From contig NMRA01000320.1 of NCBI GenBank assembly GCA_002633005.1, positions 2,720-66,719 on the forward strand: a stretch of 64,000 nt of DNA, written 5' to 3'. Both the position numbers and the translations under genes were made by a program. This DNA comes from Phoronis australis. Taxonomy: Eukaryota; Animalia; Phoronida. Every line of letters starts with the position of its first letter. Position 1 is the first letter of the stretch. The notes below the pieces were generated by a model. The model saw only the letters and a list, made by a program, of their open reading frames with translations, was not told the origin of the DNA and made no database searches. Below, in pieces: positions 3,290 through 36,167 of the stretch.

Positions 3290-3442
3290 AGACATCGTTT
3301 GTTTTAACCTTGAGCATGCGCGTTGAAATCTACCAGCAGAAAGTGGAACATCAACTGTTCAAAGCGTCTGATTTTACGATTTCTGGTTTATAAAAAGCAA
3401 GACGAGTAAAGACGACAGCTGATTCTCCGGACGGGCTTTTTG
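3290..3442 (+). promoter_or_regulatory. Candidate DGCR8 promoter / non-coding first exon
   Basis: CpG-richer stretch, NRF1-like GCATGCGC at 3314-3321, strong donor TG|GTAAGA at 3443; start boundary approximate, no transcript evidence. Confidence 0.35.
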
Positions 3443-6001: not shown

Positions 6002-6035
6002 TGATGGTACTATGGGGTTATTCCCTTCACTGACT

Positions 6036-8122: not shown

Positions 8123-8482
8123 ATGCCAAAGCGTAAAAGTAGAAGGGGTTGTAGAACTACAAGCACTAGCAGCCTTGACAGTGTGGAATTGGAACCTGTG
8201 CCAACGACTGAACTTGCGTCCAATCCAACAAATGAACGATTGGCCTCGGTTGTTGACGTTGGTGGGTGTGATTCCATGGTTGTTGATGGTTGTCATAGTG
8301 ACGAGCCCGCTGTTAAAAAACCCAGATCTGCTGAGGAGACAGAGAGTAATGATGTGGTTAACGGAGGCGTGGCCGAGGAGAGTGTGGAGGATGAAGGAGA
8401 CGGGGGAGGTAACGGACCTGTACTAGAGATTGTGGATGAGAGTAAAGACAGCGATGCTTCAGAAGCCGAGTCAGATGCAGAG
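8123..8482 (+). CDS. DGCR8: DGCR8 coding exon 1 (acidic N-terminus)
   Basis: ATG at 8123, open acidic ORF, donor AG|GTAAGT at 8483 in phase 0 matching the next exon. Confidence 0.75.
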
Positions 8483-11400: not shown

Positions 11401-14400
11401 TGTTAGTATTAAACAATTGTGAACTCCTTGATTTCTGAGAAATTTGAACTGTTTGTTAAGTGGACGAGTAAACTCTGTTTGCATACCTGGTCATTTTAAA
11501 TCTTGTTTGTTTGTCTTTGATAGAGGCTGAAACTGTTGATAATGGTGAGAAGGCGGATGATGAGAAACCAGCATTGAACTGTCGGACGCCAGCTGTTGAA
11601 GTCAAATCAGCCGTAGATCATGAGAAGGAAAATAATCTAGGTGGGTACTTAAGTCTGCTACTTACAAGATAACTCTGGCATAAATGTAACATCTTGTATT
11701 GATGCGTGCCATTTTGTTGCTGCCTGGCTATATTTAATATTGATGCTGTGGTTACACATATTAAGCTGATCCTTTGCCAACTGAGCTCCATCCAGATGGC
11801 AGCATGTTTGGGGAATTTTTTTCAAATCTGTTGCATTGAATGGTGATTTTTGATCCCGACACCCAGCCGATAGTCGTCATGAGTGGCGGTCAATATAACC
11901 ATTTTTGTGTCACAAACTCTTTCGATTGGTGTCAAAAGCTTTATGTGAGCATGGCNATGTCTTGAGTACAAGAAGGCTGTGGAAAAGGAAAAGGAAGAAC
12001 AAGAGGACAAAAAGGGTAATGTGATGGATCAACGTTGTGCGCATGGGAGCCCCAGGTTTCACGAACCTCCGTGTCGCCTTAAGGTTATTTGGTACCCTGG
12101 AAAAATTCCAATTTTGGCCAACTTCGGAATGGAGTTTCTCAGAAATGGCTGATCAGATTCACTTGAAACTTTCGTATTCTATGCTTTATACACTGTTCTT
12201 GGATATGGTGTTAGGAATTGTTTTTTTAAATGTTCCATGTTTGCATGAGTGGCAATAATTAGCAATACACTTAATCACAAGCACATGTGATGTTTAACAT
12301 ACTGCCATATAGTCTTAAACAGTCAAGTATTGTGAGTAAAAGACCATTTAAAACTGCTATGAGTAGGGAGAGACTTAATACTTGCACCCAGTGATTGGGA
12401 GAAGAATACTCCGTTCCAAGATTTTGAGGAACATATTTCAAAATCTTTCCACATTAAGCCCTTGAATTACAGTTTGTGTATAGGTGTTGTGTTACTACTG
12501 TTCCTATAAAATAAGAAATTAAGAAACTGGGTGCAGAAAAACTCAGTGGCATTACTCATAATCCAAATCCAGTTGCTGGACTCCATCAAAGCCACGGCCA
12601 GTGATCATGAACTGACATGTGCTGATTAGTGGTTGTATTGATGGTTCTGACCATTGGGTCGTTTCTCCACCCTGAGGAGGTGTAATGGAGGCTGTTAGTA
12701 TTAAGCAATTGTGAACTCCTTGATTTCTGAGAAATTTGAACTGTTTGTTGAGTGGACGAGTAAACTCTGTTTGCATACCTGGTCATTTTAAATCTTGTTT
12801 GTTTGTCTTTGATAGAGGTTGAAACTGTTGATAATGGTGAGAAGGCAGATGATGAGAAACCAGCACTGAACTGTCGAACGCCAGCTGTTGAAGTCAAATC
12901 AGCTGTAGATCATGAGAAGGAAAATAATCTAGGTAGGTACTTAAGTCTGCTACTTACGAGATAACTCTGGCATAAAGGTACATCTTGTATTGATGCGTGC
13001 CATTTTGTTGCTGCCTGGCTATATTTAATATTGATGCTGTGGTTACACATATTAAGCTGATCCTTAGCCAACTGAGCTCCATCCAGATGGCAGCTTGTTT
13101 GGGGAATTTTTTTCAAATCTGTTGCATTGAATGGTGATTTTTGATCCCTACACCCAGCCGATAGTCGTCATGAGAAGCGGTCAATATAACCATTTTTGTG
13201 TCACAAACTCTTTCGATTGGTGTCAAAAGCTTTATGTGAGCATGGCATTAACAGGCATTACTCTTTTACCTTTCTGAGAAAAAGATATTGTTAAATAAAT
13301 GAATTGTCATCTTATTTCAGAGCCTGAAGAATTGAGAAAATATTGTGAGAGTGTCTTCCAGTTCAAGACCATCAAATTCAAGCGATTCAAGTAAGTGATA
13401 TGTGTTTACTTTTAATGTTGTGGGCTGTAAAGTTCTGAAAGTCCTACGCAGCTCTAGTTATGTCGAGCCAAAGTCACAAACAAAAGGTTCCACCCACAAA
13501 ACATGGTTTTCAAAAATGGTGTTGTACGAGACTTTAACAGATTGAAGCTGATGCTTGTATAAATGTTTTGAAGGATCTTTGTTACCGAAAAAATCATGTG
13601 ATTAAGCCTGAAAAATGCTCTGGTGTGTCTTATAAGTTTTTTTTTGTTGATTCTCATTAAAGTTGTAACTCGTAGTCCAAAAACATAAAATTCATGCAAA
13701 ATAAAATATTAAGATACTTTCAGCACGTGGAAAGAAAGACGGATTGAAATGAAGAAAGAAAAGAAGAAGGCCAGACCGTCACTGGTATGTTTATATCACC
13801 TTTGTTTTGTCAGTCACCAAAACAATTTGTCGTGCAAGGTGTTATTGCTAAAATCTGGAAGCATTCAAGCAATATCCTGGGTAGGGTGGACTGATGACCA
13901 CTGCTGCCACCTGGCTGCAGAGGGAGATACTCCAATCCCCCAGCACGTTGGATCATGTGCAGCATTATTTAACCATCATAACATAATTCTGTCGGATAGT
14001 GTTAAACTCCTGCTCCATCAGTTTGCTGTTTTGAAACATCTTCATGTGTGTTCTCAAAAGCTGACACTCCATTAGCTGGAGCACGCTAAGTCGTTCCACA
14101 CGATTAGTGGCCAGTGCTCCATGAAAGTCTCCCATTCTCCCGCAGTGCATGCGTTATTGACTATTGCACATGTTGTGTGTGTTTCCAGCCATCCAGCACC
14201 ACGTTTATCACCTGCCCTTTACCATCAGGAAGTGCTGATAAAACCAACAGGAAGAAAGGTAGGGTGACATTTTTTTCTCTCTATCCAAGATAATTTTGAT
14301 TAGTCTGGCATTGTGTTGTTGAATCTTCTCTGGTGTCACCAGAATGAAGCCTCTAAACCTGGAGGGCTTGGAATGTCCCTCTTGTAATAGGATTTCCTCC

Positions 14401-17400
14401 TTTTTGGTTTCGATTTCCTCTTATTTGATTTTTAGTTTCCTCTTTTTGCTCTCTTTTTAGCATTATTTTGAGTTTATTCATGCAAAAACGTTTATTTCAC
14501 TTTAATTTTACAACACAAATATATATTTCTATCACACAAGACTATTTGTGGAATGATACAGTACCTGGAAAATTTTCCTCTCTTTTGTCATTTTTCATTC
14601 CAAGCCCTTAAGTGAAGATCGATAAATGAGAGTTCTCTTGAATCTACTGTACTGTGTTGAAATGTGAATCTCACTTTCAAGCTAGCTGTGTTTTAAAAAT
14701 TAAGTGCAAAACCTTGAGCTGTATTCTAAATGTCCCTTTTTCCATCTTGTTCGTGCAGTTACTCTATTTGGTTCTTGCAGAGTTTGTATTGAATCCGGAT
14801 GGTAAGACACCCGTGTGTTTACTACACGAGTATGTACAGCGGGTACTCAGGCTTCAGCCCAAGTATTCTTATAACGATACAGGTGAGTAGCCCCCTTTGT
14901 TGGGATTTTATTTGGTTTGGTTATCGGGCAGTTTCTTTTCGTCATCAAAATGTCTGTAGGTAAACACGTATAATGTTGCTAGAACTTTTTAGTGACAAGA
15001 ATCCTTCAATAGTTAACAAGCATAGCCTTTCTGAACCAATAGGTTGCATAGGCAACTGCCAAGGCTCCATTGTGTCTTGGGGAAAGGCTCTAGTGGTTTA
15101 GGCGTGCTAAAATGAGTTGAATGATGCCCTGAGGTCCTGTATTGCACAGGTCTCCATAGTGTAACAGGAAGGTCGAGTCTAGCTAAATAGTATGAGCGCA
15201 ATGTTAAAACTAAGTTTTACAGTTGTCTATTATTAAGGTCCTTACTCACTCTGCCTTGTCATTTTCAAGGTGTTCAATAGTAGATTTGTGAAAATATTGT
15301 CATGCACGTGTAGTGTAAACAGACAGAAGAGGAGAAAAAAAATCCTCCAACAAGGCTTGTAGAACTAACCGTTGTCATTGTATTTTAGACGTGGCCCTGA
15401 CGCCATATGGTGCCACTATTACCATTGATGGTATTGAGTATGGCACAGGTTTTGCTGCCAACAAGAAGCAAGCTAAGCAAGAAGCAGGTGGGTAGTTTTA
15501 GATATCTAGTTGCTTCAATTTTAACCATGCTCATTAATTATTATGCGCCCACATATTCATATGTGGACGCATTATGTCGTCATCTCTGTCCGTCCGGCAT
15601 CCGTTCGTCCGGCATCTGTCCGGCGTCTGCTGCTCTATCTCCAAAAGCCTTTGATGTACATTCATGAAATTTGGAACATGTGTTCCTTTTATGGATGGGA
15701 CGGCATGAGTGAACTTTTGGACTGATCCGACTACCGGTGTGCCCCCTAGTGGCAATTTTAGTTTTTTACGCTTACCTCCATATCTTCAAAGGTCCTCAAC
15801 GTATTTTCATAAAATTTAGCATATAGGCATCTATTAGTAAGATGACGCTTTACTTTTGTTGTTTTCGGATGGATTTGACAAAGTTTGCGCCACCTAGTGG
15901 CCATTTTTGCTGTTTTTGAGTCTGTTTTTTAGTGTCCACCCCTCTATCAACCAAACCGCTGTAAGGATGATTGTGAAAATTGGCATGTATGTTCTTACTA
16001 TGAAGAGGACGGCTGACGTTGATTTTCCGATGATTTCGTCTACTGTGGTGACTCCTAGTGGCAGTTTTGTTTTTTGCGCCCATGGCTGTATCTCCTAAGC
16101 CATTGGCAGGATCTTTGCTAAATTTAACAAGTTTATTTATGTTATGTTCACAACGCATGACAACAACTTTCGGACAGATCTGACTACCAATGTGCCCCCT
16201 AGTGACAATTTTAGTTTTTTAAGTTTACCTCTGTATCTTCAAAGGTCGTCAATAGATTTTCAGAAAATTTGGAATATAGGCGTCTATTGGTGAGATGATG
16301 CTATCCTCCTGTTTTCGGATGGAACCGAGGTACTTTGCGACACCTAGTGGCCATTTTTTCGAGTCTGTTTTTTGGCGTCCATCCGTTTATCAACCAAACC
16401 ATTCTAAGGATGATTTTGAAAATTGGCGTGTATGTTCTCAGGCGAGGGCGGTGAACTATAACAAATTCGACCACTGAGGCACCTCCTAGTGGTACTTTTG
16501 TTTTATTTTGTGCCCATAGCTGCATCTCCTCAACACACTGCATGATCTTTATTTAATTTAGTAATTGTATTTTTACGAAGCTAACACAGACGACGTCTTT
16601 CAGGCCGATCCATTGAAGGCTGTGCCCCATAGTGGCAATTTCATTTTTTCCATTTTCCTTCATTTCTCTAATTTAAGTTCCTTGACTGATATTTATGAAA
16701 TTTGGTAAATGGCTTTCTATTAAAGAAGCGGTGTCATTTTCCCGTTCTCAGATGGATTTGATGTTTTTGCGCCATCTAGTGGCTTTTTATGAAACAAACA
16801 AACTACCCCAGAAGCACACCGTTAGGGATGCATTCGTGGGCGCATTCCAATGCTCCGCGTTGCTCTTGTTGTTAGTAGGATTAGAAATCTATACAGTACA
16901 AATATCACCAGTGTTCTTGGTCAGTGTAATATCTTTTTTGTGCAATGTTGGGGTTCATAGATTTTTAGGTTCCTACAGGTTGTCCCATGATTCTGTTTGT
17001 TCTTGTCTTTTCTTGTGGTTTCTTTAGTTCTTACAAAATGTTTCATAGTGTTGTACAATTAGAGTTTGCACAGGAACAAGGGTACTGTTTTGTTTGTCAA
17101 GCTGAGAATCCAATTTAGTCTTCAGTTTAACTACCTTGCACCGTTTCCTTCATTCAGCCAAGAAAGCTTTGTCTGTACTCATACCTGATGTGAAAGAGTT
17201 TGGTGACCAGAAAGAGATGGACTTGGATGACTTGTCGGTAAGCTAACACATTCACCAAACAGACAATTATAAATTAAACTGCTCTTGGAAAAAATGAGAT
17301 ACTCATTTTCAGTGTTGCCCAGACATTGTTGTTCCAACTGGTTTCTCTGTCCCAGTTCGTGAATCAGTACCATACGCGGCATAGTTCTTGAACCGCAGAT

Positions 17401-20400
17401 TGCTCTTCTTTGATTTTGTATCGATCATAATGACACGGTCATAATGACACGATCATAATGACATGGTGAAGTTGTGCGTCTGCAGTGGTTAGTCATTTTG
17501 TTTTCAGTTTTTCGAGGAGATCAAAATTGAGGATCCCCGTGTCAAAGATCTGTGTGCTCGCGTAGGACACAATGGCCCCTTTACCATCCTGCTGGAGTGC
17601 TTGAAAAGGTAAGGTGTATTCATTATAGTACTGTATCTATTTGTTTGTTTATTTGCATCAAGTAATGTGCAGGAAAGGAATTTATTCAGAGTTGCCTTAG
17701 TGCATAATGACCTGGAATTGTCATCGTCCATTAGAATCTGGTCATCTGGGTTGTTGGGATTGAGATTTTCATGGTTTCCAAATTCTCAATGTTTTGTCTC
17801 TATGTCATGTATTTCTGAATTGAAACATGTACCATGTTCAACCCTTCTCCAGATTGAGAGGGTTTGTTTGTTTGTGATATGCCGTGTCAGTTATATGGTA
17901 AGGTATGTACTAACTTTATGTAGGTTACCATGGGAACATCCTAACTCAGAAATGGCTCATGGCATTCATATGAAACTTTCATATATTGTGCTTTATGCAC
18001 TCTTCTCTATTAGCAATTGTTTTTAAAATGCTCTGCTTTTGCATGAGGGGCTATCAAAAAGAGGACTCTATGATTTTCATGAAAATATTGAAAGTTCCAT
18101 AAAAAGAAAACAAAATCATAATTTAATAAAAAGCTGTTTGGCATTTGAGAGATTTCATCTTGAAATTTTTGTCAAGCGGAATTTGATCACGTTATTGATA
18201 CCATTGTTTCGCTGTCAGTGTACCTTTCTTGTATGTCAAATTTTATGAAAAAAGACATCACGTGACCCGTTTAATGACATTGTTAAAAAGTCAAAAACCA
18301 AATTCTACAGGATTTCTACTGGCCAGCTGATACGTTTGGTGGCGACCGAGTCAATGGGAAATAAACATTTTGGTGTGCATTTCAGAAACTATGGCTTAGG
18401 GAACACTGACATCAAGATTGAGATGAACACATTGAAGAATCAGAAGTGTGAATATACCATGACAGCCGGGAAGCACACCACAACGGTGGGTAGTAATGGT
18501 CATGGGTGAAACTTGAACCAAAAAAATGCATTGATGTAGTCAAGTCACAGGTGAAGGACTACTGTTGACAACGGGCTTATATCCATGGTGTAATGGTCAT
18601 AGGTAGTTAACAGATGAAACTCTGCCCTGAACCAAACAATTCAGTGATGTAATCAATGACAGATGAAGGACCACCGTAGACAACGGGCTTATAGCCAGGG
18701 TCATTAACCCAATAAGAGCAGTTATCAGTTAGTGTAGATGATATCTCTATTTTGCTGTTATGGTTTAAATGTTATCCCATGCGCATTGAATGCAGTACGG
18801 CATGTGGTATTGTTTTATTGTATTGCACTCCCGGGACTACTGTAATGGTGTCGTCTGACATGGAAAGTTCGGAAGATAGGTCGACTCAACATCGTTAGCC
18901 GGGTCGATCATCAAACGTTCCCAAAATAGTTTAAAGTAATTAAGTTACGTTACAGCAGTATAAATAACACTCAACATGCAATCAGGTCACAAACATAGCA
19001 CCTGGTACAAAACTTAATTTTGTAACACTTCTGTCTCAGTTTTATTTGCTAAATAATATATTGGCTGCAACTCAGGCACCTATTCCTCTGTAATTTTATT
19101 TAACTACAATGTTAAATATAATTGTTGTTACTTAATTATTTTCGGAAAATGTTACAAGTTCAATGCACAATTACCGTTGTTTTCATCTTTGTTACCTCTT
19201 CTGAAGTAACAAATTGTTACATATAATACTGTTTTCTTTGACTATAAGAGTAAACTTGTAAGATAACGCGCAAGTACATACACTATAGATTGTGATCTGC
19301 CACATGAACAGTTAAGCTGCAGTATTTTAAAAATCTGTCGAAAAAATAAAAGAAACTAAGAGTTCGAAACGTATGGGATAAATACAAATTTCGGTCTCGG
19401 TCGATACACGGAATAATGTCTCATGCGATATTATTTCGTCTACGCCTCTCTCTACACTTGGTCCAGTGTGTAGCATAAAATAAAGAATCTACATTCACGT
19501 TAAAAAACCTCTGAAATGTTTCCAAATAAGAGCATTTTTAAACATAAGGCTGTGTGTGGTTTTAACTAGATTAACTAATATTTGCAAAATTATCTTTGTG
19601 GAAGACGTTGCATATAAATTATTTAAATAAACATTTACTAAACTTTCACTTAGTTGCATGTATTTGTTTGTTTGTTACAGGTGACTTGCAAAAATAAGAG
19701 GGATGGGAAGCAGCAGGCTGCCCAGGCTCTACTGCAGGTAAACTGATATAAGGTGATATACAGTTGCAGCTTAACCAGTCGTCTCAAATAGTCATGCAGT
19801 TGCTGTGTTGTTTAGAATTATAGGAGCAGACGACGCCTACGTTGGTAATCACTCGCTCATTCTGTACTGGATAGGGAAATGAAATGAAAAAGAAAATATA
19901 ATTGAATTTTTCTATTTGAGGTGTCTTGAATATTGCATTGAACTCTACATAACATTAACATATCTTAAAAAATACTTTGTAGTCTAGGTAACACCAGCGT
20001 AACGTGTCTTACAAGTTAATTGAACTCTATGTAACGTCAGTGTAATATATCTTGAAATGTACCTTGTACTCTGCATAACACCAGCGTAACATGTCTTGCA
20101 AGTTACATTGAACTCTACGTAACATCTGTGTATTGTACCTTGTAAAGTATCTTGTACTCTAGATAACTCCATTATAACGTCTCTTATGAATTACGCTGAA
20201 CACTATTTGACACCAGCATATTAAAGGGCATAGACACATCAAATGTCTCTTAAAGTTGTACTGAACTGTGTATAACATCCCTCCCTAACGTGTAAAGTTA
20301 CGTTTCAGCTGTTTAACAGTGTTTATTATCTGTTGTATAGTTGCTGCACCCCCACCTTAACAACTGGGGCTCCATCATGAAGCTGTATGGTAAAAGCACA

Positions 20401-23174
20401 GTGAGAATGGAACAAGAGAAGAAGGTATGTCTCACCCATCGCCATTGATAGGCACTGAAGCTAGGCATCTTTGTGATACACGGCGATTCTGTAAACTTGA
20501 CTGTGCCATGGCGCTGTTGTTTGTTTGGTAAAAAGCTATAACTACCTTTCAGTGTGCTCAGGCTCACCTTTGTCCACCTGTTGTCAATGAACATTGTGCT
20601 GATATTTGGTGTTTACAAGTGACTACATAGCAGTTGGTGAGAGCCCTGGAACTGAGTTGTTTTCGGTAGTGTAATGTATTCAGAAAATCACTGCAAATTA
20701 CAGAATTGTGATTGGCATATATATAGAAGTTGTGTAGATTTGTGAATCTTGCTTGTTAGCTGAGAATTTGTATTTCTGTCTGTTCCAATAGTGATTGCTC
20801 TCAGGATCTTTATTGGGTCTATTCTGAAGTATCAAGTTGTGAGACCCTAAATCTACATCTTTGCACCAATGCTATGTAGTAGTAAAATTTTCTTTTATCA
20901 CAAAGGTGCCTAGTCTTGTTGACAGTTGTGTTCTCTGTTTTGTTTTGTTGTGTTGTTAATATTTTTAGTGTTATTAAGTTAATTCTTTGATAATCATTGT
21001 GCCAATCGACCTATCGCAAGCTCCACCCCCTTGCAAAAAGTTGACAAACTAAGTTTTACCCGACAACGTGTTGTTTGTCGGGTAAAGTGGTGGCTTGGAA
21101 ACAAAGGTGTGTCAATAATGCTGCGTTCTGATTGGTCAGTTAAGCGGTCACTCAGAATCTAGGCGATTGGTCAATTGTATCATAGGTACAGTTTATGCGC
21201 TGTTCTAAAGGAATATACCAAGACTTTTGAGTGTTCTGTCAAATATTTGACCTGTGATAACATCATATATGTCTGGAGTTGAATGATCTGGTTGTTAGAC
21301 GGGCTAAGTTAGCTCGCCCTGTTTTGAACATTGGATTTGCCCCGTTTTCTGAGTGTTGCAGACTGGGATGTTCTGGCAAGTAGTAGACATGTAATGACAT
21401 CAAGTTATCCCGAGATGTGTGATTTGGTCATTAGTTAGGGAGAATTTGCTCTCCCTGTTTGCAACAATGCATTTACCCCATTTTCTGGTGTTGATGCTGA
21501 CTTGGGTGTTTTGACAAATATTTGCCCAGTAATAGGATCAAAGATATCCTGAGATGCGTGATTTGGTCATTAGGCAGTGACAGCTTGCAGGCCCTTATAT
21601 CTGCTATGCTCTCCTCAACTCAATGTTTCTTGGAAACATTTCAAATGAAATTGTGTTTTACTAAGCGTCGTTATTTTTAAGTTATGTTAAGTGCCCCAGC
21701 ATGTTTACACTTGGGTAATTTTTGGACGACAAATTCAGCAATTGCATAAAAGGAAAATAGCTGCAACTTTGCAGCAATCACAGTGATCAGCACAAGATGC
21801 GCAAGCTTTCAATTGAATGGCAAATCAATTCATTTGTAAACTACCTAACACAAAAAGTGTTGCTACATATACGGTTTGGAGAGATGTTGTCAACAGACCT
21901 TCCATTGTTTGGTACTGGTGGTCTCCAGGGGTCTGTCTCATGACAAGCGACTTTGTCTTATACTCCACGCAACAATTTCCGAAAAACACTTAAATTTCAA
22001 TGCTCGAAATTTCCCAGTTTAGATAATATACTAGGAAATTTGGGTATTGCACAAACTTTACTTCGTGATAGCGAAGTGGGAATGTAAGGCAAAGTTTCTC
22101 ATTTCAAGTGGAACTTGCATGCTAATTCCTTATCTCTGTGATTGCTTGGTCAAATTAGTTAGAAACTTAACATATAGCGACGATGTGAATATGAAGTAGA
22201 TTGAAAATTGGCAAATGTTTTTAGAACGAGTTATGTGTTGAATATGATCTGCCGTAAATCACTCAATCATGTCAAGTATCATGACGTGGGGTTGGGGAGT
22301 AACAATGCATGATGCAGGTGACGTGAGTCACCTAGGTACGTTATTAGTTCAAAGGTCACCAATTTGCGGAATTTTGTTTTACATTTACAAGTTGTCAATG
22401 AATAAAACTTCACTTTGTTTAGCATAGATAATGTTGAAATAGCATTGTCATTTAGTTCCTGCTATACATTTGCGTAGTTAGGAGCATGCGAATACATCTG
22501 TAAGCCCAAGTCATTTTTCATGACTCAGGCCCCAGTTAAGTGTCCGTTGGAGTCCAACCATTTTCTGAAACACTCAAAATCCTTGCGTATTTCTTTTAGG
22601 TACTGCACCATACACATGTAATTCTTGTGTTTTGTTTTTGTACTAATTTGCAGTCCAATTCAGTTAATGGTTGCTATTGTTTTTAGTTGCTCAGTCACTG
22701 CACCTCGTTTTTATCAGTGAATTCCATTTTTTCCACAAACAAGCATCCAATTGCAATTTGAAAAGTACAGATTAAAATGTAGGCCAAAATTTTACGAGTC
22801 GGCCCGCGTCACTTCGCCACCATTGCATTCGTCGAGACGACAAGGAAGCAGGCAGGTTAGTTGGTGTGCACAGAGCATGCGGTAGACATAGGACATTTCA
22901 CTTGAGTTGGTCTATTCCTCATTCTGTTCATTCTTCCTCCCTTCTCTGCACGTGCCGCTGTCTTCTTAGCCTGGGGCTGAGGTGTTTCGCTATTCACCCA
23001 TCGTCTTTGTGTTACTAGATTCGCCAATCGTTTCTTACTAACTGATTGCGTTCTTCCTTGGATACTGTTGTGTTTATGTGGTGATGCAAGATTTTCTTTC
23101 AGCTTTAGTGGCAGCAGTAGTTTGAATAAACTTTTTAAATTCTAGCGTAAAAATGGTTTTGAAGTCTGCGTTGA

Positions 23175-23211
<37 letters not shown>

Positions 23212-26200
23212 ATACTTTTCAGTTAACTTGAAAGCGCTTTTTTAGGAATGCACTGTTTAATTTGTATTTTATTGGCTGCATTTTCAAGATTAGAATAGGT
23301 TGCACTCATTGTCCGAACTATTTTTTGAAATTTTATTGAATAGTTTTTAAGATAAATCTTCGTCAATACTGTGATATTCAATGCTTTACTTAGCTGTTTC
23401 TTTTTGTAATAATCTTTTATGTCTTTCAGGATGTGGAGACCCAGTCTGAGTTGTCTGAGCTCAGTAGTGTCATTTGCCAGGACTTCGGGTTGCAGGTGGA
23501 CACCACGTTGACCTTAGTCCCTCGGACCACGGCTGATGGCACCACTCAAGCTGGTCCGCCTGGTGGCAGTGATGTCAGTGTACAAGTGGGCGGTGCCAAG
23601 ATGTCCGATACATTTGTCCAGGCACACGTGTCTCCTCGTCTCACGAAGAGCCGTGTGTTCAGACAGATTGTCCCACCTGTGCCCCCTCCCAGCAGGAAGG
23701 ATGCATGCGTCCAGTGCTTTCGCATGCTGCAGGACCGCACCACCCAGGTGACCGATGATGCCTACTTCTTAGGCGACTGTTGGTGCGTGTCAAGAGAGGT
23801 CAAAGTTCATCGCGTGACCCAGACCGAGTGGCTGGGTGTTAAGTCATTCCACAAGGCGACCCAGGAGCCAGAACAGACTAACTTGATTAAGACTGCGCGT
23901 GGAAGTAATTACACAACCATCAGCCATCTTGGAATGGAGGACAAGGTGACGGAGACAGACTGGACTGGAAGTAGTATGTTTCACAAGGCCACACAGTTCC
24001 CTGACGTGACCTACAGCTCCGAGGACACCAGCAAAGAGGTAACCAAGACAACAACTCGACCGTCTTCACCTACTTGGGGTCAAAGGCCACCGCAGTTCTC
24101 AGCTCCACAGTTTCAGATGCGATCGCAAGCTCCTCCCATTCGCTACCAGATGCCACCCATCCAAATGATGCAGGCCCCCATGTATGCCAATCCCTACAGC
24201 ATTGCTCAGCCGCTGTATCACAACTACCAGTATTATCCCCACAACATGTACATTCCTCAGTCTCAGACATCCCAACTACCCCCAACTGAGGGATCACCAC
24301 CCGAAGGAGGGGTGGGACAGTGAAATCTTGAACATTTTAAATAGATAAATCATTTGCCATAAGATCTACTTATGAATTGGCCTGTTAAAATGTGAGAGAA
24401 GCATTGTAAGTGTTTGTTATTAGTAATGGTTGTATTTGTGTGGTAGAAATTATTGTATCTTAAGTTTTTAGGTAGTATTGTTGGGTTTGTCTTAACAACA
24501 ACTGAAATAGTATTGTTTACTGTTATTTGTGAAGAAAATTTTATCAAATACAATGTATGAAAATGATGAAATGTAATTCATGATGGACCTGATGGAAATT
24601 TGATTCATATATACTGTGTTAAGTTGAATTTCAATTAAGGGGTTGGTTTTCATTTGTAGCATGAAGTACTGTAAGATTGTTCAGAGTTGAGTTGAATGAT
24701 TCCCTTGTTGTTTGTAATAAAGTTGTTTTAAGAACTCTACATTTGATTGATCATTATGTTTGTTGGAACTGTGGCACGCATAGGGTTTCTTGGGTACACA
24801 TTTTACAAGATTTGAAGTTTTGTTGATATTTGTATGGTCGCATATTGCCGTCATCTCTCTCCGGGCGTCTGGCGTCCGCGGCTGTATCTCCTAAACCCCT
24901 TGCAGTATCTTATTGAAATTTGGCTGGTGTGTTCCTGTAGGGTTAATGACAGAGGCCGACGAGTTTCGGACGAACCCGAATATCGCTGTGCCCGCTAGTG
25001 GCAATTTTAGTTTTTACGCTCGCCTCTGTATCTTCAAAGGTCTTCAACCGATTCTGATGAAATTTGACACATAGGCGTCTATAATGAGTTGATGCTATCC
25101 TCCCGTTTTTTGGATGGATTTGAGGCATTTTGCGCCATCATTTAGCCATTTTTACTATTTTCGAGTTGTTTTTTGGCGTCTGCCCCTCTAACAACCAAAC
25201 CACTCTAAGGATGATTGTGAGAATTGGCATGTATGTTGTTACTATGAAGAAGACAGTGGCAATTTTAGTTTTTTTACGTTTACCTCTGTATCTTCTTAGG
25301 TCCTCTACAAATTTCCATAAAATTTGGCACATAGACATCTGTTAGTGAGGCGACGATAGCCATTCATCTTCAGATTGATTCAAGGTGTTTTGCGCCATCT
25401 AGTGCCCATTTTTGTTGTTTTCAAGTCTGTTTTATTGGCGTCCGTCCCTCTGTCTACCAAACCACTCTAAGGGCGATTGTGAAAAGTGGCATGTATGTTC
25501 TTTCTATGAAGGTGACGGCTGACGATGATTTTCCGATGAATTCGACTACTGGGGCGCCTCCTAGGGGCGTTTTTTTACACCCATACCTGTATCCCCTAAG
25601 TCGTCTGCAGGATATTTATTAAATTTAGCACCTGTATTAAAAGGAAGTTAACAAGAGAAGACTAGGACTTTTAGACGGATCCGGCGAACACTGTGCCCCC
25701 TACTGGCTATTTAATTTTTCGTTTTCCTCCGTTTCTCTGAAGATCCTCGACGAATTTTAATGAAATTTGGTAAATGGCTTTCTTTTAAAGAAGCGATGAC
25801 ATTTAATTGTGATGCATTCGTGGGTGCATTTCAACGCTCCGTGTTGCTGTTATTACAAAACGAGTGGTGGAAACAATTCTGCGCTTCTAGGTTCCTACTA
25901 CAATTCTCTAAACACACCACACACCAAACCCGCGACACAAATCCCTAGACATTCCACCCTGAACTCTACACTGGAAATGCTTCATACCCGGTGACCAAAC
26001 TCAGATTCCATGGCTGTCCCTCCAGCATGCAGATGGAATATTGAGTCGAGGTCATTTCATATAGAATTTTGAGTCGTGGGCATTGTACTTGGTCATCGCG
26101 TATGGATCGTGTGTTAAGCTGAGGATGCGGTTCTGAGGATTTTGACCGTGGTTTTTGTTATCTGCTGATACAGGACTGGAGTTTATGTTGGGGAATCGTA

Positions 26201-28073
26201 GCTGGAATTGAAGGTCGCGTTCGTGGAATTGTTTGCATTCCGTGAAAACAGGCTCAAGGCTAATGAGTATTGCCACGTAATGACCTTCTATTGAAATTTC
26301 CCTAACGGGGCTCGTGGCTTTGTTTCGGGTCAAGAAATGTACTTTATAATGGTTTCCCTAGGTGAACGGCCTTTAGTGATGATGAAGCTTTACGAGACTC
26401 GTTTTTACATTATTGACAATATGCCCTAATGCCTTCGTGTGAAATATATCGTTTCTTTCGGTTCACATTGCAAAAGCAAAGCTTGCAACGGCATACTTTG
26501 TTACGTCTCGTTTTTTGTGCTTTAAATTTCCTTGCAGGAAATTCTAAAAAAATGTCAAAAGATTTGCGAATCAAGCCCTGCATAGAACCTATCGGGGTTG
26601 ACTTCGTGCGCGATTGGTAGAGGAACTGCTGTTGTTTTTATCAACTGGTTTATGTTCATGATTGCGTGCTGGGTGTTTTTTAACGCAGTAATGTTTACTA
26701 TATAGCCCTTGATATTTTGCAGTTCGTTCAGCAATCACCCTGGAAATTTAGATTGCATGAAACGGCTATTCATGGTAGTGGTATAAAAGGATTTGAAAAA
26801 GGCGCCTACGAACTCGTGCCCCCCTTCTTTCCACCACCACTTAGGCCCCCGTTTCACAATTCCTGTCAATCGCCACGACTCTAGCTTGCTCTCATGCATA
26901 TTCGGTTGTCACCAGTATGCACTTTGAATTTCAGATGTAGTGTTTATCTACAAATTTACACTCCTAAGTTTCAGCCTAGGGACTTATATCGTTACTTGTT
27001 GTCTACAAATGAATGAATTGTTTTATTTTGCCGAGAAGATGTTGGATTTTTTTATCTGTTTATTTTGTAGCGTGATCAAGCGGATATTACGAGCCTACAG
27101 AGAAACATTGAATCCGGTAAACCCAACGAAGCTGTCTTGAGCCGGTTAAAAAAAGAAATGCTGAAACTAGCTGACAATAAGGTATTATTCTTGTTCGCCA
27201 AACATTTTTCATTTTCGATGGACACCATATTGAGACTGTGCAAAAGATTTTTAGAAATCAATTTACACGATTTTGTTACAGGTTTTATATAAATTCTCAA
27301 GATAAAAAGGTTATAGTTTTGATAGCCCCTCAAAGTGGAATATTTTATAAACAATTCCTAACAAGGTTTTGGAAAACATTGCATACATGGTATCTGAAAG
27401 TTTCATATGAATCCATCCAGCCGTATTTAAGACGGGATGTTCTGAATTTTGCCAAACATGGAGTGTTTTCTTGGGTCCTGCGTAACCGTAATGTTTTTCC
27501 AGTTTCTTTGCAGATTAGGAGGGAATGTCAAAGGTTTTATAGGCGCTATACATTTTATCATGTCTTACAGTTACTGCGCTGTAGGATGCTACACTCTGGT
27601 GTCCCTGTTTTTGTTATCATATTTTAAAATTGTCTTTTGGCGCGAGGAAAATTAGACCCCTTCCTCCGGTCGGTAGCTGTACAGGCAATTTCTTCACTGC
27701 AGCACTAAAGCTGGTAGTTGGTATGAGTTGAGTAAAAAGAGAATCCGGTGCAATTTTTACTGACATCAATTTTACGTTTTTGTTTTTGAAAAAATAAACA
27801 ATTAAAAAATACCGCATCACTGCATCAATTTTCAAAATAACAATTCCGGAATTAAATATGCAGTTTACCCTTCCTACACACTCAAGAACAGTGGCAACTA
27901 GCAATATTAAATAGTTCTAGCAGTGTTTGCGAGTGTACACGCTGCAGTGATATTCTCTTCCACTTTACTTTCAGAAACAGATGACCGGAGCGATCAAGAG
28001 CGAAAGCGCCAAAACTGTTCAGTGCAATACGTCCGTGCCCGTTCCTCAACATCCCACTGGCATTGATTTATAA
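8123..28073 (+). CDS. DGCR8: Microprocessor subunit DGCR8/Pasha, spliced CDS join(8123-8482,9306-9438,9897-10039,10645-10732,11524-11640 [or duplicate 12816-12932],13321-13390,13724-13784,14189-14258,14781-14882,15389-15487,17158-17237,17508-17608,18386-18485,19681-19737,20341-20424,27071-27181,27975-28073), 624 aa
   Basis: All introns GT-AG and phase-consistent (1875 nt). Contains the WW motif LPDGW...[10 protein letters not shown]...[10 protein letters not shown], heme-ligand IPCL, two dsRBDs ([14 protein letters not shown]...KKQAKQEAA; [27 protein letters not shown]), Drosha-binding tail [17 protein letters not shown] and C-terminus IDL*. Confidence 0.95.
9306..9438 (+). CDS. DGCR8: DGCR8 coding exon 2
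   Basis: tttccag acceptor, [21 protein letters not shown]...EKVVLI, donor GTATGT. Confidence 0.88.
9897..10039 (+). CDS. DGCR8: DGCR8 coding exon 3 (WW domain)
   Basis: [42 protein letters not shown]; ttacag / GTGAGA. Confidence 0.95.
10645..10732 (+). CDS. DGCR8: DGCR8 coding exon 4 (heme-binding IPCL)
   Basis: [16 protein letters not shown]; tttcag / GTAATG. Confidence 0.93.
11524..11640 (+). CDS. DGCR8: DGCR8 coding exon 5 (copy 1)
   Basis: gatag acceptor, 117 nt phase 1-1, [14 protein letters not shown], donor GTGGGT. Confidence 0.75.
12816..12932 (+). CDS. DGCR8: DGCR8 coding exon 5 (duplicate copy after N gap)
   Basis: Near-identical to 11524-11640, intact splice sites; lies in the gap-flanking duplication. 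Confidence 0.6.
13321..13390 (+). CDS. DGCR8: DGCR8 coding exon 6
   Basis: [23 protein letters not shown]; tttcag / GTAAGT. Confidence 0.92.
13724..13784 (+). CDS. DGCR8: DGCR8 coding exon 7
   Basis: [20 protein letters not shown]; tttcag / GTATGT. Confidence 0.9.
14189..14258 (+). CDS. DGCR8: DGCR8 coding exon 8
   Basis: [23 protein letters not shown]; ttccag / GTAGGG, phase-consistent. Confidence 0.87.
14363..14608. mobile_element. Short MITE with related AGGGCTTGGAAT TIRs
   Basis: AGGGCTTGGAATG ... CATTCCAAGCCCT. Confidence 0.65.
14781..14882 (+). CDS. DGCR8: DGCR8 coding exon 9 (dsRBD1 start)
   Basis: [29 protein letters not shown]; ttgcag / GTGAGT. Confidence 0.95.
15389..15487 (+). 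CDS. DGCR8: DGCR8 coding exon 10 (dsRBD1)
   Basis: [28 protein letters not shown]; ttttag / GTGGGT. Confidence 0.94.
15541..16870 (+). mobile_element. Helentron-associated (HINE/DINE-1-like) non-autonomous element
   Basis: Sub-terminal inverted repeats ATGCGCCCAC (15543) / GTGGGCGCAT (16836), 5' palindrome, (CGTC/GTCC)-type microsatellite, ~150-bp internal tandem units, 3' stem-loop CAATGC-TCC-GCGTTG, T-rich flanks. Confidence 0.75.
17158..17237 (+). CDS. DGCR8: DGCR8 coding exon 11
   Basis: [15 protein letters not shown]...; attcag / GTAAGC. Confidence 0.92.
17508..17608 (+). CDS. DGCR8: DGCR8 coding exon 12
   Basis: [34 protein letters not shown]; tttcag / GTAAGG. Confidence 0.94.
18386..18485 (+). 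CDS. DGCR8: DGCR8 coding exon 13 (dsRBD2)
   Basis: [33 protein letters not shown]; tttcag / GTGGGT. Confidence 0.93.
19681..19737 (+). CDS. DGCR8: DGCR8 coding exon 14 (dsRBD2 helix)
   Basis: [19 protein letters not shown]; ttacag / GTAAAC. Confidence 0.93.
19920..20310. repeat. Degenerate ~44-bp tandem repeat with dimeric (~88 bp) higher-order structure
   Basis: Alternating units ...AACTCTAYRTAAC...CTTGT and ACTCT..ATAACACCAGCGTAAC..GTCTT..AAGTTA..TTG. Confidence 0.7.
20341..20424 (+). CDS. DGCR8: DGCR8 coding exon 15
   Basis: [18 protein letters not shown]; gtatag / GTATGT, ends phase 0. Confidence 0.93.
21220..21600. repeat. Degenerate ~138-bp tandem repeat, about 3 units
   Basis: Recurring AAATATTTG.CC...ATCA...TATCC.GAGATG.GTGATTTGGTCATTAG. 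Confidence 0.55.
23179..23210. repeat. (TTA)n microsatellite
   Basis: About 10 TTA units; absent (short) in the paralogous copies at ~31933 and ~34784. Confidence 0.9.
23430..24323 (+). CDS. Intronic terminal exon, 297 aa, multiple LC8-binding-type TQ/VQ motifs plus Pro/Gln/Tyr-rich tail (alternative DGCR8 last exon or last exon of a nested gene)
   Basis: Strong acceptor ttttatgtctttcag|GAT, 894-nt uninterrupted frame of higher GC than flanks, TGA at 24321-24323, AATAAA at 24716. Confidence 0.7.
   Translation, partial: DVETQSELSELSSVICQDFGLQVDTTLTLVPRTTADGTTQAGPPGGSDVSVQVGGAKMSDTFVQAHVSPRLTKSRVFRQIVPPVPPPSRKDACVQCFRMLQDRTTQVTDDAYFLGDCWCVSREVKVHRVTQTEWLGVKSFHKATQEPEQTNLIKTARGSNYTTISHLGMEDKVTETDWTGSSMFHKATQFPDVTYSSEDTSKEVTKTTTRPSSPTWGQRPPQFSAPQFQMRSQAPPIRYQMPPIQMMQAPMYANPYSIAQPLYHNYQYYPHNMYIPQSQTSQLPPTEGSPPEGGVGQ
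24830..25852 (+). mobile_element. Second HINE/DINE-1-like copy
   Basis: Same internal units and 3' end (GATGCATTCGTGGGTGCATTTCAACGCTCCGTGTTG) as 15541-16870. Confidence 0.7.
27071..27181 (+). CDS. DGCR8: DGCR8 coding exon 16 (Drosha-binding C-terminal tail)
   Basis: [37 protein letters not shown], similar to human KPNLHILSKLQEEMKRL; ttgtag / GTATTA. Confidence 0.9.
27975..28073 (+). CDS. DGCR8: DGCR8 terminal coding exon
   Basis: tttcag acceptor, phase 0, ends PTGIDL-TAA; AATAAA about 200 nt downstream (~28278). Confidence 0.8.
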   Translation, partial: KQMTGAIKSESAKTVQCNTSVPVPQHPTGIDL

Positions 28074-29662: not shown

Positions 29663-30754
29663 CTAATCTTCACAGGCCTTGCAACACATCAAGTGCCGCC
29701 ACTGTGAAGCGAATCTTTGCGCCTGTGGAGAGGAAGTGGTTGGCTCCTTGCCCATGTGACTGTTTCGTCTGAATCGGGATTTCAAACGCTTGAAAAGTCC
29801 CTCCCGTTTCACGGTCTTTGGATTATCCGTAAAATCATAGTCTTTTGAAACGGAAGAAACGACATCAAGGGGCACACGCGCGAATCGAGACTTCTTGACG
29901 TCTTCTGGATCAATGTTCTCGGTTGTGGGTGGATTGTTGCTACATTGCAATCTTGTGTTGCTTTTCTTGATTTCAGTGTCCACTGAATTATCTGCCGTAG
30001 CAAATAGCAAATCACACTTGGTCAACGTTGCAACATTGGACGGTCTCTCAACTGCAGAGCTTTGAGTGTCCTTTGTAAATGTCTTGGTGATCATAGAGGA
30101 AACTGTCGATTCAGTCGACTCAGTGATCTCAGACAGCCTAGGGTCTTCTAAGTGGTCACTCGGGTCTTTTTTCTTACTACCAGCATCATCAGCGAAGACA
30201 GCGACACCTGACGGTTGGATGACTTCCCGTACAACGTTGTCAACGTCAGCTGGTTTGTTTCTGCCATCCAATTTCACTACTTCTCCCCCTCCTGCATTAT
30301 AGCGACCAATCGATTCTTTCTCCCTCTCCATCTGCTCATGGACATTCTTCTTTCCCCTCTCTTTTTTCTCTTGGGAAATGTGGAACACTTCCTCCGAAGT
30401 GTTTCTTTTACATTTGCTTCTATGGCGGCGCGCTTTGTGGATGCCTGACGAGTTTCCGATTTCACACTCGAATTTGCACTCGGCGACCTGCCCGGCGATT
30501 GCCTTAGATTTGTGGACAACGTCCGCTACGCATCTGACACCAGATTCCATTAATCCAAAATCAATTTCTGCTTTCTCAACAGATTCATCTCCTAACCACA
30601 TTGTCGTGCTTGCAATTGCGATGTTTTTGTACGGGGATCTCCACATGACAGAGCTTACTTTCTCTGTTGTTCTCAGAATAATTTGCCAAACAAAGTCTAT
30701 AAACCACGATATCGTGACTTTCACAAAGTCTGGAATGATTCGCAAGTGATCCAT
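29663..30754 (-). CDS. Intronless uncharacterised protein, 363 aa from ATG (copy 1)
   Basis: Long open frame from ATG (MDHLRII...), AATAAA on - strand near 29470, conserved intact in a second copy; no recognisable domain. Confidence 0.7.
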   Translation of the reverse strand: MDHLRIIPDFVKVTISWFIDFVWQIILRTTEKVSSVMWRSPYKNIAIASTTMWLGDESVEKAEIDFGLMESGVRCVADVVHKSKAIAGQVAECKFECEIGNSSGIHKARRHRSKCKRNTSEEVFHISQEKKERGKKNVHEQMEREKESIGRYNAGGGEVVKLDGRNKPADVDNVVREVIQPSGVAVFADDAGSKKKDPSDHLEDPRLSEITESTESTVSSMITKTFTKDTQSSAVERPSNVATLTKCDLLFATADNSVDTEIKKSNTRLQCSNNPPTTENIDPEDVKKSRFARVPLDVVSSVSKDYDFTDNPKTVKREGLFKRLKSRFRRNSHMGKEPTTSSPQAQRFASQWRHLMCCKACED

Positions 30755-32792: not shown

Positions 32793-33452
32793 GGTGGCAC
32801 TGAACAGTTAAGCGGCGGTCGCGGCCAATTTGCACTGCCAAAATATTGAAATTTTGGGGTAGGCCAAGTTTGGGGGCATTTTGTAGGTGGGCATTGCACG
32901 TAGGCTCAATGAATGTGGTTTGTTTGTATTTGTGAACATGCTGTGAATAAAAAAGGCCACTTTCTTGGCTGTAGCTGCACTCTTCTTCAAGATGGCGGCC
33001 CCCGGCTGCAATTGTGCATTGTTGGGTAGCGACCGAGAAATTGGCTGTGATTTTAGGTAGCCCTCAAACAAGCAAGAATTGCAAAAAAACTAGTTGGTTG
33101 ACAGTACTTTTGGACCACATTTTCTGAATCGGTAGGAAATTTGCTTTCAGACTCTAAGTTTGGTTTTAGTCGTGCATCGGCAGGGAAGTGGTGTTTTTCG
33201 GGTGAAAAGTGCCGATTTTGCATTTTTTTGCCCTTATTTTTCTTAGTCTAGCTTGGTTGTCAGTGGGAATGAAATGGTCAAAAATACAAGAAAGAATAAA
33301 GTTTCTGTGCTCATCTGCTGGGCTTTTTATGTGAAATAATTGAAAACATGCCATTCTTTGCATCCTGTTTTTGACAGAGTGAAGAAAAGGTTACAAATCA
33401 AGTGATGTGTGTTTTGCTGGGCAAAACCCAGTGAGAACTGTTCTGTGCCTCC
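32793..33452. mobile_element. PIF/Harbinger-type MITE, 660 bp
   Basis: TIRs GGTGGCACTGAACAGTT / AACTGTTCTGTGCCTCC, TAA target duplication; the empty site is visible in the paralogous segment at ~21846 (ctaccTAAcacaaaa). Confidence 0.88.
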
Positions 33453-35021
33453 TAACACAAAAAGTGTTGCAACATATACGGTTTGGAGAGATGTTGTCAA
33501 CAGACCTTCCATTGTTTGGTACTGGTGGTCTCCAGGGGTCTGTCTCATGACAAGCGACTTTGTCTAATACTCCACGCAACAATTTCCGAAAAACAATTAA
33601 ATCTAAATGCTAGAAAGTTCCCAGTTTAGATAATATACTAGGAAATTTGGGTATTGCACAAACTTTACTTCGTGATAGCGAAGTGGGAATGTAAGACAAA
33701 GTTTCTCATTTAAAGTGGACCTTGCATGCTAATTCCTTATCTGTGCGATTGCTTGGTCAAATTAGTTAGAAACTCAACATATAGGTACGATGTGAATATA
33801 CAGTAGATTGAAAATTGGCAAATGTTTTTAGAACGAGTTATGTGTTGAATATGACCTGCCGTAAATCACTCAATCATGTCAAGTATCATGACGTGGGGTT
33901 GGGGAGTAACACTGCATGATGCGGGTTATGTGAGCCACCTAGGTACGTTATTAGTTCAAAGGTCACCAATTTGCGGAATTTTGTTTAACATTTACAAGTT
34001 GTCAACGAATACAACTGCACTTTGTTTAGCATAGATAATGCTGAAATAGCATTGTCATTTAGTTCCTGCTATACATTTGCGTAGTTAGGAGCATGCGAAT
34101 ACATCTGTAACCCCAAGTCATTTTTCATGACTCAGGCCCCATTTAAGTGTCCGTTGGAGTCCAACCATTTTCTGAAACACTCAAAATCCTTGCGTATTTC
34201 TTTTAGGTACTGCACCACACACATGTAATTCTTGTGTTTTGTTTTTGTACTAATTTGCAGTCCCGCAATTCAGATAATGGTTGCTATTGTTTTTAGTTGC
34301 TCAGTCACTGCACCTCGTTTTTTCAGTGAATTCCATTTTTTCTCACAAACAAGCGTCCAATTGCAATTTGAAATGTTCAGATTAAAATGTTGGCCAAAAT
34401 TATACGAGACGGGCCCGCGTCACCTCGCCACCATTGCATTCGTCGAGACAACAAGGAAGCAGGCAGGGTAGTTGGTGTGCTCAGAGCATGCGGTAGACAT
34501 AGGACATTTCACTTGAGTTGGTTTATTCCTCATTCTGTTCATTCTTCCTCCCTTCTCTGCACGTGCCCTTCTTAGCTTGGGGCTGAGGTGTTTCGCTATT
34601 CACCCATCATCTTTTTGTTACTAGATTCGCCAATCGTATCTTACTAACTGATTGCGTTCTTCCTTGGCTACTGTTGTGTTTATGTGGTGATTCAAGATTT
34701 TCTTTCAGCTTTAGTGGCAGCAGTAGTTTGAATAAGCTTTTTATAGTCTTGCGTAAAAATGGTTTTGAAGTTTGCGTTGATTTTTATTATTCTTATTATT
34801 ACTGCATGCGTTTCAGTTAACTTGAAAGCGCTTTCTTAGGAATGCACTGTTTAATTTGTGTTTTGTTGGCTGTATTTTCAAGATTAGAATAGGTCGCACC
34901 AATTCTCCGAACTTTTTTGAAATTTTATTAAATAGCTTTTAAGATAAATCTTCGTCAATAGTTTGATCTTCAATGCTTTACTTAGCAGTTTCTTTTTGTT
35001 GTAATCTTTTATGTCTTTCAG

Positions 35022-35421
35022 GATGTGGAGACCCAGTCTGAGTTGTCTGAGCTAAGTAGTGTCATTTGCCAGGACTTCGGGTTGCAGGTGGACACCACGT
35101 TGACCTTAGTCCCTCGGACCACGGCTGATGGCACCACTCAAGCTAGTCCGCCTGGTGACAATGATGTCAGTGTACAAGTGGGCGGTGCCAAGATGTCCGA
35201 TACATTTGTCCAGGCACACGTGTCTCCTCGTCTCACGAAGAGCCGTTTGTTCAGACAGATTGTCCCACCCGTGCCCCCTCCCAGCAGGAAGGATGCCTGC
35301 GTCCAGAGTTTCGTATGCTGCAGGACCGCACCACCCAGGTGACTGATGATGCCTACTTCTTAGGCGACAGTTGGTTGTCTCACGAGAGGTCAAAGTTCAC
35401 CGCGTGACCCAGACCGAGTGG
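35022..35421 (+). pseudogene. Truncated, frameshifted duplicate of the 23430-24323 exon
   Basis: Near-identical to 23430-23832; 1-nt deletion near 35305; breaks off at ~35421 into sequence matching 28930 onward. Confidence 0.8.
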
Positions 35422-36167
35422 CTTGGTCAGTTACTTCACCAACGTTCAGATGAGTGTAGAGTTTTGTTCCGAGCTTACGAAATGAACGGAATAAAGACTT
35501 TTAGTAACGAAAAGTGTCGTTTGTTTAATCAATTTTGCATACCGGAAAATTTGCTCCCGAAGTACAGCCGCGCGTACTGTGTAGACAAAAAGTAAAAACG
35601 ACGGCTAAATCCGGGTCTTTAGTGAAAATGCGTTTATCGGAATTTCGGAATTTTGATGTGACTGAATGTTCCAACTGTCCCCAGTTAGTGTAGTTAGCTG
35701 GTTATTATGCTCTATCACGACGTTCTGCATGCCTCTAAAAACGGAACGTTTTGGCACTTATTTCATAAGCTTCGAAAACCCGAATAATTTGCCTTGACTC
35801 AGTGGCCGCTTTCCACCCTGACATGCGCCTAAAAGGCCGAGTAAGCTTTGGTATCAGTCTATATAGACGATAAGAGAGAAGTGTCTCATTAAACTAATGA
35901 GTATGAAAACCAATTAACGCAACTTTCAATTTAATCTCCAATTAAAACAAACTTTACGACTGCACATTCATTTTATTTTACCATCGTCGTACAATTTACA
36001 TTCAATATATGTACACGCAACAGAGTCTCAGAGACTTAATTGTTGCTAAGCATGTATGAAGGTGCAGCGTATTTTATACTACAATTAAAGCGTTAGAGTT
36101 AAAAGTGTTCAAAAGCGCTCAAACTGAGCTTATAATTAAGTCCGTCATGGAATGTGACATGAGCGTT

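Follow-up and report, generated by a model that had tools for sequence, protein, structure and literature searches.

The stretch of DNA analysed here, called the window throughout, comprises 64,000 nucleotides from Phoronis australis (GenBank assembly GCA_002633005.1, contig NMRA01000320.1, positions 2,720 to 66,719 of the forward strand) and carries on its plus strand a complete DGCR8/Pasha gene with two alternative 3′ ends. Coding exons 1-15 (8123..20424, plus strand) form an in-frame chain bounded by AG and GT, show homology to named DGCR8 proteins and have three joints represented in reads. They encode 555 amino acids (aa) common to both isoforms: an acidic N-terminus, a WW/heme-binding region with IPCL, and two double-stranded RNA-binding domains (dsRBD1 and dsRBD2). 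This order of domains, together with the homology, places the gene in the DGCR8/Pasha family. A query with the WW exon returned 127 proteins, the named ones being almost all DGCR8/Pasha or DRBM proteins; the core shares about 50% identity with DGCR8 of spiralians and chelicerates, and in a quick tree the window protein falls within the spiralians, in a loose grouping with the annelid Paralvinella (SH-aLRT 88, on a long branch). Within the gene, two tandem 1.3-kb copies (10674-11955 and 11957-13246) that are 96% alike and joined at a single N duplicate part of exon 4 and exon 5; they resemble two haplotypes that the assembly placed one after the other, and further N-joined repeats of a similar kind occur at 28438, 31183, 32095 and 59758.

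Exon 15 (20341..20424, plus strand) encodes the end of dsRBD2 and has a phase-0 donor that serves both 3′ ends through the joints 20424>23430 and 20424>27071. In the canonical form, it is followed by the exon of the C-terminal tail (CTT), the Drosha-binding helix (27071..27181, plus strand, supported by joint reads), and by the last coding exon (27975..28073, plus strand, AATAAA at 28279), which is joined to the CTT exon in a contig of the set X4 (see below), giving 624 aa. In the alternative form, the intron at 20425..23429 is removed and exon 15 is joined to a last exon whose coding part (23430..24323, plus strand) specifies 297 aa, predicted to be disordered and bearing motifs of the LC8-binding type, and a TGA stop at 24321-24323; its 3′ untranslated region (UTR; 24324..24740, plus strand) contains AATAAA at 24716-24721 and is taken to end near 24740, with no pile-up of reads fixing the exact end. 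The result is a chain of 852 aa (555 + 297) with no internal stop. An open frame of 297 codons has a probability of about 8e-8 at the composition of the intron, and GC at third codon positions is 0.61 in the exon versus an intron GC of 0.40. A profile built from 83 CTT matches recognized the canonical exon with an independent E-value (iE) of 2e-14 and gave an iE of 3.6 for the alternative exon; the CTT is absent from the 852-aa isoform, and the Drosha-binding tail helix is present only in the 624-aa isoform. Judged by its domains, the 852-aa isoform is a member of the DGCR8 family but, by the criterion of the CTT, not a Microprocessor subunit. An earlier, sequence-only reading had proposed this isoform, with heme-binding and dsRNA-binding domains kept and the CTT replaced, and the exon chain, the reads and the CTT profile agree with it. 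The features on which it relied (an AG acceptor before 23430, 297 open codons, a stop, AATAAA at 24716 and the phase 0 of exon 15) are all present in the sequence. Its acceptor is not the strong one described: with a pyrimidine content of 0.68, it is unremarkable within the set of 17 acceptors compared, which range from 0.41 to 0.82.

Evidence from RNA came from three raw stranded runs (X1, X2 and X3) of one study, which bear the same species label, are distinguished by run alone and not by tissue, stage, sex or genotype, and were each read to about 18-19%, and from an older contig set (X4), in which only the canonical end appears. At a threshold of 3 reads, four joints were listed at the locus. 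The proposed joint 20424>23430 (GT..AG) was found on the sense strand only, in 11 reads from 8 starts in X1, 6 reads from 6 starts in X2 and none in X3, and the canonical joint 20424>27071 in 4, 0 and 2 reads, respectively, which makes 17 alternative versus 6 canonical joint reads over the three runs. The splice that had been predicted is thus borne out by 17 reads; no second joint into 23430, and no joint leaving the alternative exon, was among the four listed. Sense-strand depth on the coding part of the exon was 22-34x in X1 and 19-25x in X2, and X3 had none; the UTR was covered 4-8x up to 24702 and below 1x in the next bin. Coverage stops close to the AATAAA, and the interval 26125-27072 has 0-0.9x in X1 and X2. 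With upstream joint reads that compete with the canonical exon, its own stop and its own poly(A) signal, the exon is almost certainly a genuine alternative last exon used by an RNA isoform.

The choice of last exon differs between the samples, two of the three runs using the alternative exon. If the exon were used in X3 as in X1, about 18 reads would be expected on it; none was observed, though nearby repeats were deeply covered. This coverage argument is stronger than the joint counts, which, taken by themselves (17:4 versus 0:2), give a Fisher P of 0.059 and, as small counts from three runs of one study, weigh against reading too much into the difference. Two joints farther upstream in DGCR8 were represented by 20 and 20 reads in X1, 11 and 12 in X2, and 3 and 2 in X3, and therefore DGCR8 RNA is several-fold more abundant in the runs that use the alternative exon. 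Some canonical RNA is also made in X2, where 6 reads cover position 27136 in the CTT exon. Two further arrangements were considered and rejected: extra exons between 20424 and 23430, because coverage there is diffuse and one direct joint spans the interval, and an internal donor joining the alternative exon to the CTT exon, as in a gene model of Paralvinella described below, because no such joint was among the four listed. Low sense coverage, mostly 1-6x, extends across the whole intron (20437-23280) in X1 and X2, with almost none in X3, which suggests slow splicing or retention of this intron when the alternative exon is used. Around the stop codon (24229-24702), depth drops from about 30x to about 8x with no joint listed, for which AT bias or a poly(A) site farther upstream is a possible cause.

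The tail encoded by the exon contains a conserved 21-residue unit with the consensus H-x3-[QE]T-x-W-x-G-x4-H[KR][AT][TI]Q[FYE]P, in which the two Q anchors are spaced by a fixed 14 residues. The window exon has two copies, unit 1 (23808..23870, plus strand), which holds the sole TQT anchor of the exon, and unit 2 (23940..24002, plus strand), in which Q is changed to E at the first anchor; the exon ends in a low-complexity stretch rich in P, Q, Y and M (24069..24320, plus strand). Relatives made up 2 of 298 candidates, 6 of 27 candidates and 4 representatives in three protein searches, and a metagenome scan gave two loci (L001 and L002) from 116 pattern matches. Two units are found in the proteins P0001-P0003, P0007 and P0008 and in L002, and one in P0009; a P/Y/M-rich end is also common to the relatives. 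P0009 clusters with a Paralvinella palmiformis gene model (KAK2169785.1, P0021), a DGCR8 with an insert of about 310 aa (residues about 690-998) that carries the unit between dsRBD2 and the CTT. The model joins this insert in frame to the CTT exon; because the matching open reading frame (ORF) P0009 runs past the splice point of the model to a stop of its own, P0021 is probably a fusion of two isoforms, with the terminal exon stitched in by the gene predictor. L002 carries the dsRBD2 exons of DGCR8 (381-587 and 1120-1254), the CTT exon (1555-1665), a multi-exon module with two units (3507-7197) that has a phase-0 acceptor and no Met, and the canonical last exon (9674-9760, the best of 535 frames, E 4e-4). 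L001 has a module with the same kind of acceptor (1590-3931), and no DGCR8 exon was found on its 4.7 kb.

The expectation that the exon stays inside DGCR8 in related genomes therefore held at all three loci where linkage could be checked, but in one of them, L002, the module lies after the CTT exon instead of replacing it; in the other two it lies before that exon. These comparisons point to an old module that is linked to DGCR8. Since the unit is also present in Paralvinella DGCR8, before the CTT, and in L002, after the CTT exon, the tail was apparently gained earlier, and more widely, than the CTT was lost. The position in L002 could allow the module to be added without removal of the CTT, so that Drosha binding would not necessarily be lost wherever the module occurs, which counts against extending the Phoronis arrangement to the other animals. 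Further points limit the generality of the module itself: outside the unit and the composition of the tail the relatives barely align, the module type of L001 and L002 has about 300 residues more than the window exon, and the unit was found in none of the 140 proteins of the DGCR8 search (P0023-P0162), with mollusc, nemertean and arthropod annotations. Annotated DGCR8 tails after dsRBD2 were at most 79 aa long in 86 of 120 listed matches in which the end of dsRBD2 could be located. This survey of annotations is not evidence of genomic absence, because no named protein in it is annelid and the clusters show few isoforms. The longer module (L001 1590-3931, L002 3507-7197 and P0003-P0008) has conserved blocks and a coiled coil, both absent from the window exon, and its introns vary, with about five in L002, one in L001 and none apparent in the 620-aa ORFs. 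The coiled coil of P0001-P0008 was considered as a second CTT and rejected (iE 0.11 or worse). A degenerate repeat of the dsRBD2-end exon directly follows that exon in L002 (1259-1363).

The sequence-only reading described the tail as an array of about 11 regularly spaced LC8-type motifs. All 11 hexamers are present, starting at residues 1, 18, 36, 48, 60, 91, 102, 127, 141, 171 and 185 of the 297-aa tail, but the gaps between them are irregular (11-31 residues), and 11 is too high a count of LC8 sites. LC8 prefers Q at position 0, a buried residue of the T/V/I type at -1 and +1, a polar residue at -4 (often D), a large one at -3, no aromatic at -2, and P, D or E at +2 (PMC6607443). In a rule-based grading after these preferences, 4 of the 11 motifs pass every rule, among them KDVETQSE, which spans the splice joint; of the others, 5 violate a single rule and 2 violate two. 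Graded in this way, the tail has several 8-residue motifs with a [TVI]-Q-[TV] anchor and a polar residue at -4, as multivalent LC8 clients do, and the D at -4, Q at 0 and T or V at -1 and +1 of its motifs agree with the published preferences (PMC6607443). The pattern D-x-x-[TVIL]-Q, which was picked post hoc, occurs 7 times in residues 1-200 versus 0.3 times in shuffles, none of 5000 shuffles reaching 7. A single-chain model of the tail, based on a 7-sequence alignment, shows no confident fold (pLDDT 39, pTM 0.18); the exon matched no Pfam family below E 0.1 and no PDB sequence below E 5, and neither the exon nor the window had a match in Rfam. Because the motifs fit the preferences of LC8 and the tail has neither a confident fold nor a Pfam or PDB relative, we consider it rather likely that the tail binds LC8.

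Several observations weigh against LC8 as the partner. Many TQT peptides fail to bind LC8 (PMC6607443), 7 of the 11 motifs carry violations, window unit 2 has E at position 0, the N-terminal D-x-x-x-Q motifs cannot be aligned in relatives, and the low pLDDT may partly reflect the 7-row alignment. The second half-site (HK[AT][TI]Q[FY]P), which is the best conserved, is atypical in placing an aromatic residue at +1, a buried position. The W, G, H and P that are invariant in the unit fall outside the LC8 anchor and may serve a different partner. An isoform that is real and free of Drosha, with a 21-residue unit that binds another protein (a light chain of the same fold, or something unrelated) and an LC8 look that is partly compositional, would account for these residues, for the fixed Q-to-Q spacing and for the lack of enrichment of the plain TQT anchor, which occurs once in the window exon (P 0.22). 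The excess of D-x-x-[TVIL]-Q motifs speaks against this explanation, as does the first half of the unit, which passes all rules in window unit 1, P0001, P0003 and P0009 and is thus a clean LC8 motif in all three lineages; moreover, closely spaced strong and weak LC8 sites are known in ASCIZ (PMC12797016). We therefore regard a different partner as unlikely, though it deserves weight. As a side observation, intact LC8 (dynein light chain) genes of eukaryote type were met on contigs of bacterial species representatives (L003, L004, L005, L007 and L009, three of them on one 20.7-kb contig), which are probably eukaryotic contamination of the assemblies; scans of viral contigs gave no LC8 gene.

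Our preferred reading of the whole chain, to which we assign a probability of roughly 55%, is that sample-dependent use of the last exon yields a CTT-less 852-aa DGCR8 whose tail binds several LC8 dimers and which serves as a Drosha-independent RNA-binding scaffold. In expressing cells, cleavage and polyadenylation near 24740 would pre-empt the CTT exon. The isoform would still dimerize through its heme-binding region and bind hairpin RNA. The CTT binds and stabilizes Drosha, and in human cells its deletion abolishes both association with DROSHA and microRNA (miRNA) output (PMC6009577, PMC6659673); by analogy with these human data, it would follow that the 852-aa isoform is unable to bind or stabilize Drosha. 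The two parallel, disordered tails would be zipped by LC8 dimers at 4 good and up to 7 weaker sites, in the manner of ASCIZ, GKAP or Panoramix; because DGCR8 is already a dimer, LC8 would zip the tails rather than create the dimer. The multivalent dimer, together with the P/Q/Y/M tail, might then keep structured RNAs uncleaved in a complex or granule for storage, transport or silencing. A point to be set against this chain is that, at the protein level, the 852-aa isoform is a prediction from RNA and reading frame.

The same isoform might instead mainly damp the production of miRNAs, by forming heterodimers with canonical DGCR8 through the heme-binding region or by occupying hairpins of primary miRNAs, with most DGCR8 transcripts of the expressing tissue being diverted from the CTT exon. 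Such diversion fits the listed joints from exon 15, which lead to the alternative exon in 11 of 15 reads in X1 and 6 of 6 in X2, and CTT-less human DGCR8 forms no working Microprocessor (PMC6009577). However, X1 and X2 show no reduction of the canonical form relative to X3 (4 joint reads in X1 versus 2 in X3; depth in the CTT bin 1.8, 2.5 and 0.9 in X1, X2 and X3), so that the alternative isoform comes on top of the canonical one. A plain inhibitor would also not require a conserved tail of 300 aa, and the CTT could be kept in L002. Damping as the main role thus appears rather improbable.

The scaffold that we favour can be compared with several known systems. Like an engineered human DGCR8 without the CTT, which does not associate with DROSHA (PMC6009577), the alternative isoform consists of the WW/heme-binding region and two dsRBDs, but it is natural and sample-specific and has acquired a new 297-aa tail. 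Isoforms of fly Pasha are described as differing at the N-terminus (PMC6124762), whereas the window isoform differs at the C-terminus. Drosophila Loquacious-PD, an isoform of a dsRNA-binding cofactor whose C-terminal part is swapped for a region that binds Dicer-2 (PMC6124762), is alike in its partner-swapping tail; it is the product of another gene acting at another step, and in the window the predicted partner is LC8, not an RNase III, and the tail is multivalent and about 300 aa long. Panoramix (PICTS/SFiNX) has a disordered C-terminus with TQT-type motifs in close succession, which drive the dimerization required for silencing (PMC7861614), and LC8-dependent dimerization of Egalitarian is required for its binding of mRNA (bioRxiv 2021.05.12.443861); no sequence homology to the window tail was shown for either, and LC8 binding was measured in these proteins, whereas here it is predicted from motifs. 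In ASCIZ/ATMIN, GKAP and Chica, a disordered chain bears several LC8 motifs, some strong and some weak, with non-TQT anchors such as IQV and VQV among them (PMC12797016). They too are not homologous, the window array being a single alternative exon fused to an RNA-binding core, and its conserved double unit with W, G and H was not met in the passages of PMC12797016 consulted on these proteins.

A DGCR8/Pasha isoform that lacks the CTT or binds LC8 was not described in the literature searched, in so far as its sources were accessible, most subscription journals and supplements lying outside the search. We are dealing with a real and conserved, previously unannotated variant of DGCR8, for which the proposed mechanism is plausible. 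A role of DGCR8/Pasha in heterochromatin that is independent of miRNAs has been assigned to the full-length protein and its N-terminus (PMC6659673). Whether DGCR8 acts independently of Drosha has so far been judged by the comparison of mutants. A natural CTT-less isoform with a conserved tail, which is the majority form in some samples, makes the question of Drosha independence directly testable. A miRNA-independent role of DGCR8/Pasha in neuronal morphogenesis has reportedly been described as well (Luhur 2014). We can speculate, tentatively and with considerable doubt, that a second DGCR8, specified by a last exon concealed in an intron, has persisted in annelids or wider spiralians over hundreds of millions of years as a tissue-restricted, Drosha-free and LC8-zipped RNA scaffold, in which the hairpin reader of the Microprocessor is turned to the storage, transport or silencing of RNA, germ cells being one possible setting. 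If this is true, the Drosha-independent functions long suspected of DGCR8 would have a natural gene product dedicated to them, and the RNA reader of the Microprocessor would be connected with LC8, a hub that piRNA silencing and mRNA transport already use. Gene models such as that of Paralvinella can conceal an isoform of this kind by stitching its exon ahead of the CTT.

All of this presupposes that the exon belongs to DGCR8. It might be a separate nested gene with an intronic promoter, the joint to DGCR8 being a side product: its depth in X1 (22-34x) is higher than the 17x reached where exon 15 ends and than the count of joint reads (11), sense reads run along the intron, and there is an internal Met at residue 59. 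In L002, a CpG-rich stretch in the last intron of DGCR8 (2000-2950), with repeated TTCCGG and TGACGTCA words, could act as a promoter upstream of the module. Nevertheless, the sole listed joint into 23430 comes from exon 15, no starts pile up in the intron, the upstream joints of DGCR8 rise together with the exon from run to run, and coding similarity between L001 and L002 begins at the acceptor, without a Met, all of which makes a nested gene very unlikely. The N-terminal Met of ORFs of the P0001 type was rejected as proof of a separate gene, as the first residue of P0001 corresponds to L in the DNA of L001.

Within the 64 kb there is one truncated local copy of the exon (33451..35427, plus strand), which combines 1.6 kb of intron sequence with the exon's first 408 nt, contains two one-base deletions and ends inside unit 1. 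Its exon part (35022-35427) differs from the exon by 16 substitutions, 10 synonymous and 6 nonsynonymous, with 25% expected to be synonymous (P 0.002). Because 10 of the 16 changes are synonymous, the frame of the alternative exon is under selection; omission of three changes beside an indel weakens the test (P 0.025), which tells against this conclusion. Four of the 16 substitutions, three of them nonsynonymous and situated in a linker, also appear as variants in the reads. As the remaining 12 are absent, the reads derive from the intact locus, and an origin from the duplicate was rejected; the four, some of which occur in otherwise clean reads, are alleles. That the exon is merely an unproductive intronic polyadenylation product or a transposon derivative, as the broken duplicate nearby and the three nonsynonymous variants might suggest, is hardly credible in view of its intact 297-codon frame, the synonymous excess, the conservation of its motifs inside DGCR8 of deeply diverged animals, the lack of any Pfam match below E 0.1 and a duplicate that is a single local copy including intron.

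The Pfam search gave no match to a transposon family. Adjoining the duplicate, two intronless frames of 373 codons on the minus strand (29663-30784 and 36168-37289) are 97% identical and belong to no Pfam family. Farther downstream, also on the minus strand, lie a single-frame array of C2H2 zinc fingers with 12 zf-C2H2 stretches (40404-41894) and two frames (53657-55041) which, by eye, we take to be the integrase and reverse transcriptase/RNase H remains of a long terminal repeat retrotransposon.

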